Positions 18,615 through 21,719 of a stretch of 59,853 bases of DNA are shown in pieces. Under the pieces are notes generated by a model that did no database searches, had not been told where the DNA came from, and worked only from the letters and a program-made list of their open reading frames with translations. The stretch is from sequence record PP627279.1; one strand, 5' to 3'. This stretch comes from Escherichia phage KS_A8. Positions within the stretch are counted from its first letter, which is position 1. Every line of letters begins with the position of its first letter. Both the position numbers and the translations under genes were made by a program.

Positions 18615-21600
18615 GTGGGAGATATTATGGCAACTCGTTTACGTGGTACTTTAGTTGATGGTTTAAATAAACCAATTGTCAACGCTACAGTTGCGCTTTT
18701 AGCAAAAGGGAATAGCTTATTGGTATTGTCCGGCAGTGAAGCTATCTTTAAAACAAGTGCAACCGGAACATATGATATTATAGTCCAAACGGGCTATTAC
18801 AAGGTTATTATCGGTCCGCAAGGCAGCGAGCCTTATAAAGCTGGTGAAATTGCCATTTACGCGGACAGTAAAGAAGGTACGCTGAATAACTATTTAACTT
18901 CCTGGGCACCGGAAGAGCTAACTCCGGAAGTCATTGCACAAGTTAAAGATTTAGTTTCACAAGCCGAGACAGCTAAGAACGCTTCAGCAGCATCCGCAAC
19001 TAAATCCGAACAGGAACGCGTTAAAGCAGAAGCTGCGGCACAGAATGCTGTAAACACTGCTAACGGTATGAAAGCTTCTATTGGTTTGACTACTGCACCA
19101 AGACATGTTGCAGATATTACAGTCAATCCGTCATCATTCTTGGGTTTTATACGGATTTTACGGTCTAGTACAGTAGGTTATCCGGATATTGCGTCCTCAG
19201 AAAACGTATTGGCCGGTTTTGTTTCCGCTATGGATGGAACCCCTGGATTTATAGGTGTTTTTGTTGGAGACATGACCGGGACTATATATAGCTATAGATG
19301 GATTAAGGACGTTGGCGTTACATGGTGGAAGCAGGTTAACTATTCTACTGTCAACAGATATACCCAGCTAAACGCAGAAACTAATTTTACAAACCAATTA
19401 GGCAATGCAAAACTCCTCATAGATAATAATAAAGTTTGGGGGGCATATGACAATGAAAATAAACGCTTCATACCTCTAGCAATAGCTCAAGGTGGTACAG
19501 GAGGAACTACTGACGCGGATGCTCGTACAAACTTAAGACTTGGTCCTAACGATACACCTCAATTCAGAAACCTTAATCTTGTTACAGTAGCAGACTCCGC
19601 ACAAGCGCCTTCCGGCATTGTGAGCGGTTATTTAAATAATAGCTCTGGAGTTCAAAGATGCCGCTACCGCATATATTCTGAAATAAGAGGTGACAATAAA
19701 GCGTGGTTAACCTTACACCTTCAATCAGACACAGCAACAAATAAATATGCTGGTCTAAGCGTTGATGGTAATTTTCAAATCAATGGAAATTTTATTGGTA
19801 ATGCTTTGCAGTTGTCAGACGCTCCAAATTCCAGGATTAATCTACAGTTAGATCGTTTTTATCAAAGTGCTAACGAAACGGTTATTTATACTCCGTCTCG
19901 TCAAGCATATATGACAATTTCTAATAACAAGACTTGGGGCGCTTATGACGCGGAAGCTCAAAACTTCATCCCTTTACCTATTAATAGGGGAGGGACTGGT
20001 GCTTTAACAATATCCGACGCTAAGACTAATCTTCAAATTCCGTCTGTAGGTGGGGGTGATTGGTTAACTTATAACGCTCCTCCTGGCGTGGAAGCTGGAA
20101 AGTATTATCCAGTTATCATCGATATGGCATACAGCTCTTTATATGCTTCTGGTGCTTTTATAGATATAAAGACACGTTCTGCCGCTGGTGACGATCCAAT
20201 GAACTGTTGCACTTTTAACGGATTTATTAGATGTGGTGGTTGGAGCGACCGAAAAGACGGCGGTTATGGTTACTTCAACAACTATGCAAGAAATGAAATT
20301 GCTATGAAATGTATTCTTTCTTCATCTAAAGATGCGGAAAGATACGTTGCAATATATGTTGAAGGTCGTGGTTTCCCTCTTCAATTGCGTGTCCCTGCAT
20401 TCTGTGAAGTAACAGTACCAACATCAAACTTTACTTATAAAAATACAACCTATGCGTGGGGTACAGCTAACCCTGCAACGGATTCTGTAGCTATAAACAC
20501 CTTATTTGATTTTTCATTAAACCGCGTTGGTTTTTACCAGGCCACAACAGAAGGTAATTATTATATCGGAAATGGGGAACGTATTGTTTTATCTAACGGA
20601 ATGTCTGTGGGTGAAGAGTTAAGTCTAGCCACACCTAAAGTGTCTTTCAGTGGAACCATTGCGGCTGGTAACGGTGTCATTGCAGATGGAACATCTGTAT
20701 CCAACGCTACTTTTTATAGCCGTTATCGTGTTGGTGACGTAATATATGGCAGCGAGTTTCGCGCAAGTGAAAATGCTGGTCAAATTATAGTCCGCGATCC
20801 AACGGGTGGGACTGCGCATCAATTCTTTAACTTCAATCTCAACGGGACATTCAGCGCCCCCGCTGGTTTGCTATCTTCTACTGGAGTAGATTGGAACGGT
20901 CAGATTAATACCGTCAATAAATTCTATGGGATTGCTGGACAAGTTAACACACCAGAAAACAATGTGGTTTATGGTGGTATACATGTTGGATTCAGCGGCA
21001 ACTATGCTTTCCAGATATGCGGAAGGAAAGGTAAATCCTTCTTCCGCACATTTGAAGCAGGAGTAGAAGGACAATGGCAACAATTAGTAACTAAAGGGAA
21101 CTACGGAGTTGGTCTAATTGGAACTTTTAAACCGGAAGATGGTTCAAGTGGTTTTTACACTGATTCCGATGGGGCAAATACTTGGTCGCCTGCTAACGGA
21201 GGGGGTTTTCAATCTTCGTATACTCAGCAGCGAATATTCCAATTTTGGATGACATCAAGCTCGCAGGGGTTTATTCGTTTTAATGATAGCGGTAACGCTC
21301 AAGCTTCTAAGACGGATAAACCTTGGACAACACTTCAAGCAGCTGGCACATCGGATATTAACTTCAAACGTGTGCACGGTGAAATGGACACAGATGTTGC
21401 GTTAGATAATATTAGCAAGCTTGAATTTGTTTATTTTAACTACTTGTCCGACGGTCCGGAGCGTGAAATCCGTAGGGGTATTATTGCTCAACAGGCCCAG
21501 GAAGTTGATCCTGAATATGTGCATAGCGCTGAAACATCCGGGAAAATGACTTTGGATTCTAACCCATTGTTATTGGATGCATTAGCTGCAATACAATCCC

Positions 21601-21719
21601 TTAAGAAAAAGGATCAAGATAATAAAGACCGCATTAGCAAACTTGAAACTGAAGTTGAGGAACTCAAAAAGCTAGTTGCTATGCTTGTTAATAAGGAACC
21701 GGAAGAACCCCTCCCATAA
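18615..21719 (+). CDS. tail fibre protein with C-terminal intramolecular chaperone (S74-like) domain
   Basis: 1034 aa; two internal copies of a fibre repeat (IPLAIAQGGTGGTTDADARTNLRLG / IPLPINRGGTGALTISDAKTNLQIP); C-terminal segment with coiled-coil tail matches auto-cleaving chaperone domains. Confidence 0.7.
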   Translation: MGDIMATRLRGTLVDGLNKPIVNATVALLAKGNSLLVLSGSEAIFKTSATGTYDIIVQTGYYKVIIGPQGSEPYKAGEIAIYADSKEGTLNNYLTSWAPEELTPEVIAQVKDLVSQAETAKNASAASATKSEQERVKAEAAAQNAVNTANGMKASIGLTTAPRHVADITVNPSSFLGFIRILRSSTVGYPDIASSENVLAGFVSAMDGTPGFIGVFVGDMTGTIYSYRWIKDVGVTWWKQVNYSTVNRYTQLNAETNFTNQLGNAKLLIDNNKVWGAYDNENKRFIPLAIAQGGTGGTTDADARTNLRLGPNDTPQFRNLNLVTVADSAQAPSGIVSGYLNNSSGVQRCRYRIYSEIRGDNKAWLTLHLQSDTATNKYAGLSVDGNFQINGNFIGNALQLSDAPNSRINLQLDRFYQSANETVIYTPSRQAYMTISNNKTWGAYDAEAQNFIPLPINRGGTGALTISDAKTNLQIPSVGGGDWLTYNAPPGVEAGKYYPVIIDMAYSSLYASGAFIDIKTRSAAGDDPMNCCTFNGFIRCGGWSDRKDGGYGYFNNYARNEIAMKCILSSSKDAERYVAIYVEGRGFPLQLRVPAFCEVTVPTSNFTYKNTTYAWGTANPATDSVAINTLFDFSLNRVGFYQATTEGNYYIGNGERIVLSNGMSVGEELSLATPKVSFSGTIAAGNGVIADGTSVSNATFYSRYRVGDVIYGSEFRASENAGQIIVRDPTGGTAHQFFNFNLNGTFSAPAGLLSSTGVDWNGQINTVNKFYGIAGQVNTPENNVVYGGIHVGFSGNYAFQICGRKGKSFFRTFEAGVEGQWQQLVTKGNYGVGLIGTFKPEDGSSGFYTDSDGANTWSPANGGGFQSSYTQQRIFQFWMTSSSQGFIRFNDSGNAQASKTDKPWTTLQAAGTSDINFKRVHGEMDTDVALDNISKLEFVYFNYLSDGPEREIRRGIIAQQAQEVDPEYVHSAETSGKMTLDSNPLLLDALAAIQSLKKKDQDNKDRISKLETEVEELKKLVAMLVNKEPEEPLP

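Follow-up and report, generated by a model that had tools for sequence, protein, structure and literature searches.

Modular architecture and predicted C-terminal chaperone of the lateral tail fibre of Escherichia phage KS_A8

The complete 59,853-bp genome of Escherichia phage KS_A8 (hereafter the window), a Seuratvirus (Queuovirinae) coliphage, carries on its plus strand an open reading frame (ORF) at positions 18615-21719 that is the subject of this report. One preprint mentions the phage, placing it in the Queuovirinae and giving E. coli DH10B as a strain on which it plates. The ORF was confirmed, the GTG at 18615 being merely its mechanical start, which is overlapped by a Shine-Dalgarno region, GGGAG (18617-18621). 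Translation from ATG 18627 gives a product of 1030 amino acids (aa), with a computed full-length chain mass of 111.6 kDa; the deposited KS_A8 'tail fiber protein' (GenBank WZL04164.1) has the same sequence. An earlier reading of the DNA, made from the letters alone (the sequence-only reading), had proposed a long tail fibre of 1034 aa; its identification as a fibre agrees with the deposited protein and with the PHROG matches, whereas the length has to be corrected to 1030 aa because translation starts at ATG 18627. The PHROG tail-fibre families matched were phrog_6578 (expectation value (E) 6.8e-287) and phrog_4128 (E 1.6e-131), and all named homologues are tail fibres; a search of NCBIfam returned zero matching models. 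At the nucleotide (nt) level the gene is 97.4% identical to gp20 of vB_EcoS_OddieOddie, and the first 25 kb of the KS_A8 genome are 95.1% identical to that phage. The BASEL studies identify this locus in Queuovirinae with a hypervariable lateral tail fibre. In KS_A8, a Seuratvirus siphophage, the gene codes for the side (lateral) tail fibre, which is an ordinary representative of a well-studied class and had been deposited and annotated before. The value of the present analysis, which leaves knowledge of S74 chaperones and tail fibres unchanged, therefore lies in annotation rather than discovery: a start codon set at ATG 18627 and a domain map of the fibre.

The features of the gene, all on the plus strand, are as follows; models marked AF2 were made with AlphaFold2 (AF2).

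18617..18621, +, Shine-Dalgarno motif GGGAG, 5 nt before the real start ATG 18627 (read from the sequence)
18627..21719, +, lateral tail fibre gene, 1030 codons plus stop, an exact match to WZL04164.1
18627..19016, +, lambda Stf-type N-terminal virion-attachment domain, aa 1-130 (Pfam phage_tail_N, PF08400, E 1.1e-21)
18924..19079, +, Ala-rich long helix of the proximal shaft, aa 100-151, probable coiled coil (AF2 full-length model)
19350..19541, +, copy 1 of a 64-aa shaft module (WG...PL..QGGTG.....AR.NL), aa 242-305; modelled as four short strands, then helix 296-302
19503..20000, +, 166-aa cassette, aa 293-458 (end of copy 1, beta domain 306-407, start of copy 2), missing from 863-aa variants
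19848..20039, +, copy 2 of the 64-aa shaft module, aa 408-471; modelled as strands, then helix 462-468
20040..21092, +, beta-rich distal shaft modules, aa 472-822, common to T5-like, Nonagvirus, rV5-like and T4-like fibres (tblastn)
21093..21350, +, variable distal tip, aa 823-908, the presumed receptor-binding end exposed after predicted cleavage
21348..21368, +, T-S-D-I-N-F-K, aa 908-914, with the predicted scissile bond T908-S909, nucleophile S909 and base K914
21351..21716, +, Peptidase_S74 C-terminal intramolecular chaperone domain, aa 909-1030 (122 aa, 13.9 kDa)
21564..21689, +, long C-terminal helix, aa ~980-1021, probable trimeric coiled coil (both AF2 models)

The sequence-only reading had placed a chaperone domain of the self-cleaving type at the C-terminus of the fibre and had named a Peptidase_S74 profile search as its check, and this part of it held up well. 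In the Pfam search Peptidase_S74 (PF13884) covered aa 909-965 with positions 1-57 of its 58-position profile, at E 9.5e-9 and with a score of 35.9 bits (gathering score 22). The domain sits at the extreme C-terminus (aa 909-1030 of 1030), and the rest of the protein matches tail-fibre families. Directly after a Gly-Thr pair there is a Ser-x4-Lys dyad, S909/K914, which is in register with T1263-S1264-DARL-K1269 of T5 pb1. The S-x4-K spacing is invariant in 43 of 43 homologous domains (as SDINFK, SDLRYK, SDINYK, SGREYK, SDENVK and others), which are otherwise down to about 30% identical, and Ser909 and Lys914 are both invariant in a 14-sequence alignment reaching down to 28% identity. Membership of the S74 family is borne out by every feature of the domain that is open to in silico testing; the cleavage itself is a prediction.

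Two monomer models were compared with solved structures. The full-length AF2 model (pLDDT, the predicted local distance difference test, 71.9; predicted template modelling (pTM) score 0.34) shows an Ala-rich helix followed by a chain of small beta domains. Foldseek comparison of this model with the PDB gave only noisy matches with low template modelling (TM) scores, so that a separate AlphaFold model of the C-terminal 341 aa (aa 690-1030; 42-row alignment, pLDDT 79.5, pTM 0.38) was needed. In the latter the secondary structure of the chaperone runs from helix 922-930 through strands 934-937 and 949-952 to helix 954-960, and then through two short strands to helix 978-1021. The body is of mixed alpha/beta type with a beta-hairpin and is followed by the long C-terminal helix, an arrangement that resembles solved chaperone domains. 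The top Foldseek match of the C-terminal model was the MyRF ICA (TM 0.62-0.67, probability 1.00), the K1F chaperone 3gw6 followed with a probability of 0.99, and 3gud and 4uw8 were also matched. When the profile of the domain was searched against the PDB, it retrieved the tail fibre 8hqz_d, from a T5-like 'L-shaped tail fiber assembly' (E 3.4e-45), the MyRF ICA 7dc3 (E 6.8e-12) and the tail fibre 8jov_1 (E 1.6e-5); 4UW8 and 3GW6 were not recovered at E <= 0.01 and were found only by fold comparison. The claim that the C-terminal segment ends in a coiled coil also finds support, since the modelled helix at aa ~980-1021 has hydrophobic residues at 10 of its 13 heptad a/d positions, and the coiled coils of APC and GCN4 were matched weakly.

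By analogy with T5 pb1, cleavage between T908 and S909 would release 122 residues (13.9 kDa) and leave a fibre of 908 residues (97.8 kDa). The sequence-only reading had expected release of the last ~130 residues; release as such agrees with our prediction, and the size of the fragment is adjusted to 122 aa by the predicted site. For virion proteomics, the end of the mature fibre is predicted to be ...LQAAGT908, with masses of 97.8 kDa for the fibre and 13.9 kDa for the fragment. In T5 pb1 the corresponding motif reads ...NGTINT-S-DARL-K... (T1263-S1264...K1269), and cleavage there unmasks binding, the uncleaved form not binding the receptor (2015, PMC4690869). In the second BASEL paper (2025) it is nothing unusual for a coliphage fibre to have a C-terminal intramolecular chaperone domain. 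It could be argued that the S74-like domain of KS_A8 does not cleave and is retained as a permanent distal cap or trimerisation plug, in which case virions would carry the 111.6 kDa chain. Such a view can draw on the predicted nature of the cleavage in the KS_A8 fibre and on the existence of degenerate or truncated chaperone domains in some fibres, for example the truncated one of AidaStucki (BASEL 2025). However, both residues of the dyad (Ser909, Lys914) are intact and properly spaced and do not vary among the 43 homologous domains, the domain is full length relative to the Pfam profile, and retention would be costly to judge from the uncleaved T5 form, which does not bind its receptor. We consider a retained domain improbable.

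The passengers of the S74-type chaperones of the K1F endosialidase (3GW6; a sialidase beta-propeller/beta-helix), the GA-1 neck appendage (3GUD) and the eukaryotic transcription factor MyRF (7DC3) are unrelated to the KS_A8 fibre. One might see the KS_A8 protein itself not as a binding fibre but as an enzymatic tailspike, with depolymerase activity of the K1F endosialidase kind and an S74 domain that serves a catalytic beta-helix. With E <= 1 as the limit, Pfam yielded neither a catalytic nor a beta-helix family, and in place of a long right-handed beta-helix the models have small beta domains arranged in a chain. Matches to tailspikes span only 90-110 residues, and the named homologues are, as stated above, fibres without exception. 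An enzymatic tailspike is in our judgement very improbable.

The opposite end of the protein is of the lambda Stf type. In addition to the Pfam phage_tail_N match, which the fibre has in common with lambda Stf, aa 1-92 match PDB 9e7m_Ta (E 5.5e-13), whose sequence is 100% identical to the start of the phage lambda side tail fibre gene. The position of the gene, following that of a J-like tail tip protein, is also of the lambda Stf type. E. coli prophage fibres combine the same two terminal domains and bear the NCBI name 'prophage tail fiber N-terminal domain and S74 family endopeptidase-containing protein'. The N-terminal domain has a mean conservation of 0.99 in 12 full-length fibres of the Seuratvirus type. 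T5-like fibres, in contrast, are only 10-21% identical to the KS_A8 fibre over the first 120 aa, and homology starts at about aa 125. From there on, the lateral fibres of T5-like phages (Tequintavirus/Markadamsvirinae) are directly homologous to that of KS_A8; those of HildyBeyeler and the Salmonella phages Kenya-K16 and Stp1 are 71-75% identical to it over aa 242-822. Three fibres of 1101-1103 aa (P0013, P0015 and P0017) have aa 125-1020 in common with KS_A8 at 69-76% identity, whereas their first ~195 residues are unrelated, which indicates that the N-terminal domain is a lineage-specific adaptor while the remainder moves horizontally. T5 pb1 itself has a T5-type N-terminal attachment region that the KS_A8 fibre lacks. 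It also differs at the tip, for the KS_A8 tip looks closer in fold to R-pyocin fibre domains than to the pb1 'bullet' in the monomer model.

The shaft contains two copies of a repeat. The sequence-only reading had quoted two strings as copies of a ~40-aa repeat; both strings and the number of copies are correct, and the unit proves to be longer, at 64 aa. Copies 1 and 2 align without gaps with 30 of 64 residues identical, and their Smith-Waterman score of 145 compares with 31.9 +/- 4.8 for 500 shuffles (z = 23). We sought a third copy in the KS_A8 fibre and found none. A hidden Markov model (HMM) built from the two KS_A8 copies and run on the query and 120 homologues identified 1-4 copies in 121 of 121 sequences, from several phage groups, and all two-copy relatives conserve both. 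Across 27 diverse copies, W30, G31, L43 and G48-G49-T50-G51 are invariant, and R3, T11, P42, A58, N61 and L62 nearly so. The C-terminal half of the module (PL.I.QGGTGA.....AR.NLGL) matches the solved fibres 7z47_D (E 1.4e-11, two copies), 8vbx_R, 8hqz_d and 6cl5, which come from other phages and a pyocin. This recurrence marks the module as a common tail-fibre element that is not peculiar to the KS_A8 fibre. We found no paper in the literature on the GGTG motif.

The small number of copies in KS_A8 and the low identity of their DNA (49.5%, exact runs not exceeding 6 nt) might lead one to regard the repeats as a chance resemblance, or as a local duplication of recent date that has no structural or evolutionary role. 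A chance origin is refuted by the score against shuffled sequences, by the presence of the module with its invariant WG, L and GGTG in 121 sequences of several phage groups and in solved fibres, and by the retention of both copies in every two-copy relative. The same low DNA identity excludes a recent duplication, and equally an assembly artefact, and points to an old one. We attach next to no credence to either origin. The T5-like fibres have the module in two to three copies, much as the KS_A8 fibre has two. Three of them (P0022, P0021 and P0030) carry two adjacent copies, for example at aa 311-373 and 374-437 of P0022, and a third copy farther on, from which it follows that the module also varies by tandem duplication; an extra tandem copy was likewise noted in T5-like fibres such as that of Kenya-K16.

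Beyond the repeats the fibre is a mosaic. Its aa 472-690 module recurs in fibres of T5-like phages, Nonagvirus, ~50-kb siphoviruses, rV5-like phages and T4-like Aeromonas phages, and within it aa 480-640 are modelled with a pLDDT of 80-93 over most of the segment in the full-length AF2 model. We considered for this beta-rich segment the T-shaped fibre with dual receptor-binding domains described by BASEL (2025) and rejected it for now, because aa 480-640 form a widely shared module that is also present in T4-like Aeromonas phage fibres annotated as small distal tail fibre subunits and in rV5-like fibres, and because a search of Pfam revealed no Collar/gp12-type domain in the protein. The following segment, aa 691-822, is common to many T5-like Salmonella and E. 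coli phages, with matches ending at aa 822, and many T5-like fibres have tips unlike that of KS_A8 beyond this point. Among Seuratvirus fibres aa 823-908 are the least conserved segment (0.74). Wherever the tip type is the same the chaperone domain is 88-100% conserved, as expected if tip and chaperone travel together. A natural tip swap is provided by P0008 (1121 aa), which is 98% identical to the KS_A8 fibre up to aa 822 and then continues as an unrelated, longer distal region, identifying aa 822 as a module boundary; its S74 domain also differs from that of KS_A8 (44% identity over aa 951-1025). The mosaic has breakpoints at ~aa 125, at the repeats (GGTG modules), at aa 822 and at ~aa 905, where Queuovirinae and T5-like phages offer natural points of exchange for engineering their host range.

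Three relatives of 860-863 aa (P0012, P0014 and P0016) lack exactly one 166-aa unit and have one hybrid module copy each. The single copy of P0012 is identical to copy 1 through residue 51 (GGTG) and of copy-2 type thereafter. The first 292 aa of this protein are 95.5% identical to the KS_A8 fibre and 74% to P0014, while the remainder (aa 293-863) is closer to P0014 (94.4% identity) than to the KS_A8 fibre (81.7%). This reversal of identities makes P0012 a natural recombinant that switches parent lineage inside the module, and comparison of the sequences by eye brackets the switch to a window of 5-6 residues around GGTG. We tentatively raise the possibility, which we hold to be somewhat short of an even chance, that the 64-aa module is not just a shaft element but a portable joint, where cassettes of lateral fibres enter, drop out, undergo tandem duplication and pass between unrelated lineages. 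The lineages so linked may include Seuratvirus, T5-like and rV5-like phages and lambdoid prophages. We read the module as a self-contained shaft unit; the examples that speak for an added joint role are few. Should such a role be general, the GGTG motif would be a predictable, engineerable splice point for fibre retargeting.

The genes that flank the fibre gene are listed here.

10457-13573, tape measure gene, upstream of the fibre gene and followed by three small tail genes
15153-18276, J-like tip protein gene, with Phage_Tail_Tip and Ig_J_second domains
18311-18544, -, gene for a 77-aa lipoprotein, the sole gene between the J-like tip gene and the fibre gene
21891-22598, +, gene for a conserved 235-aa protein, directly downstream of the fibre gene (mechanical ORF start TTG 21762)

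Lambda Stf needs a separately encoded chaperone, Tfa, whereas the KS_A8 fibre has its S74 chaperone within the chain. No Tfa-like chaperone families were found in the three genes downstream of the fibre. The 235-aa gene was considered as a cognate fibre chaperone and rejected: where the fibre is 97% identical its product is 99.6% identical, and where the fibre is 75% identical the product is still 97.4% identical, so that its conservation ignores the divergence of the fibre and it is not matched to the fibre allele. The absence of an adjacent Tfa-type family and of a co-varying neighbour fits an in-cis chaperone that replaces the Tfa of lambda.

Taken together, a lateral fibre consisting of a Stf-type anchor, a modular shaft, a variable tip and an S74 in-cis chaperone is in our view very probably the correct explanation of the locus. 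The architecture comes from comparison of sequences and models, and for the steps of assembly and cleavage we infer from T5 pb1 and the K1F endosialidase. In this scheme the fibre would be fixed by its Stf-type N-terminal domain to the tail tip, the core of which is the J-like protein of the gene just upstream. Three chains would associate via the C-terminal domain and its coiled-coil helix, and this domain would template the folding of the intertwined distal tip. Once the tip had folded correctly, Ser909, activated by Lys914, would cut the Thr908-Ser909 bond; the 122-residue chaperone would then depart, and the mature 908-residue fibre would expose its receptor-binding end. A separate fibre-assembly chaperone would not be needed. 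The ligand of the mature fibre would probably be a variable surface glycan such as O-antigen; the BASEL studies propose O-antigen glycans as the primary receptor of Queuovirinae fibres, dispensable on rough K-12, and a reversible attachment to O-antigen that accelerates adsorption has been put forward for these fibres. For expression or engineering of the KS_A8 fibre, the scheme implies that the C-terminal domain must stay in cis and that co-expression of Tfa is not needed.

Several points weigh against this explanation. The cleavage, the trimeric state and the receptor of the KS_A8 fibre are all argued by analogy. Compared with T5 pb1 by BLAST, the fibre had no match below E = 1, and hhalign of its chaperone profile to the C-terminus of pb1 reached E 0.056, the TSD...K stretch being the only part to align; because the direct similarity is negligible, the link to T5 draws on Pfam, on the fold and on other T5-like fibres. 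T5 pb1 has an upstream folding-sensor arginine, Arg1250, contributed by the neighbouring chain (2015, PMC4690869), an equivalent of which could not be mapped with confidence on the KS_A8 sequence: R884, which lies ~24 residues upstream of T908, is a frequent though not invariant Arg in alignment A1, and there is no reliable alignment with T5 in this region. The models are moderate-confidence monomers, and as such they would not display the tentacle-and-tip embrace or the coiled coil. Finally, KS_A8 was isolated and used on rough K-12 hosts, where the fibre may be dispensable.

Some further observations were made on the neighbouring genes. The 77-aa lipoprotein has a signal peptide and a lipobox (MKRALIMLALTLSLTAC...) and belongs to phrog_12984 'lipoprotein'; the position of its gene recalls those of receptor-blocking superinfection-exclusion lipoproteins (T5 Llp, Cor) beside receptor-binding genes. 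The 235-aa protein (phrog_9288) has a hydrophobic, Gly-rich N-terminal stretch that resembles a glycine zipper (AGAAGIGGAIGGLIGSWIG), then a middle part rich in Gln and Ala and an end rich in Cys (...PTPPTPPTGCC). Whatever the fibre allele, its identity in OddieOddie and SeppeHuegi is 97-99.6%, and at the SeppeHuegi locus, where GenBank has two ~107-aa genes, tblastn reveals one intact 235-aa frame. Farther upstream, two adjacent tail genes on the plus strand (13577-14161 and 14161-14745) encode proteins of equal length (194 aa each), between which no similarity was detectable (Smith-Waterman score 36) and in neither of which a Pfam family was found; the gene that follows them carries DUF6950. 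No tRNA genes were found in the whole window. The annotation of OddieOddie places 7-deazaguanine genes (GTP cyclohydrolase I, QueD) on the minus strand at positions corresponding to ~30-31 kb, and genes of this pathway are a signature of the Queuovirinae.

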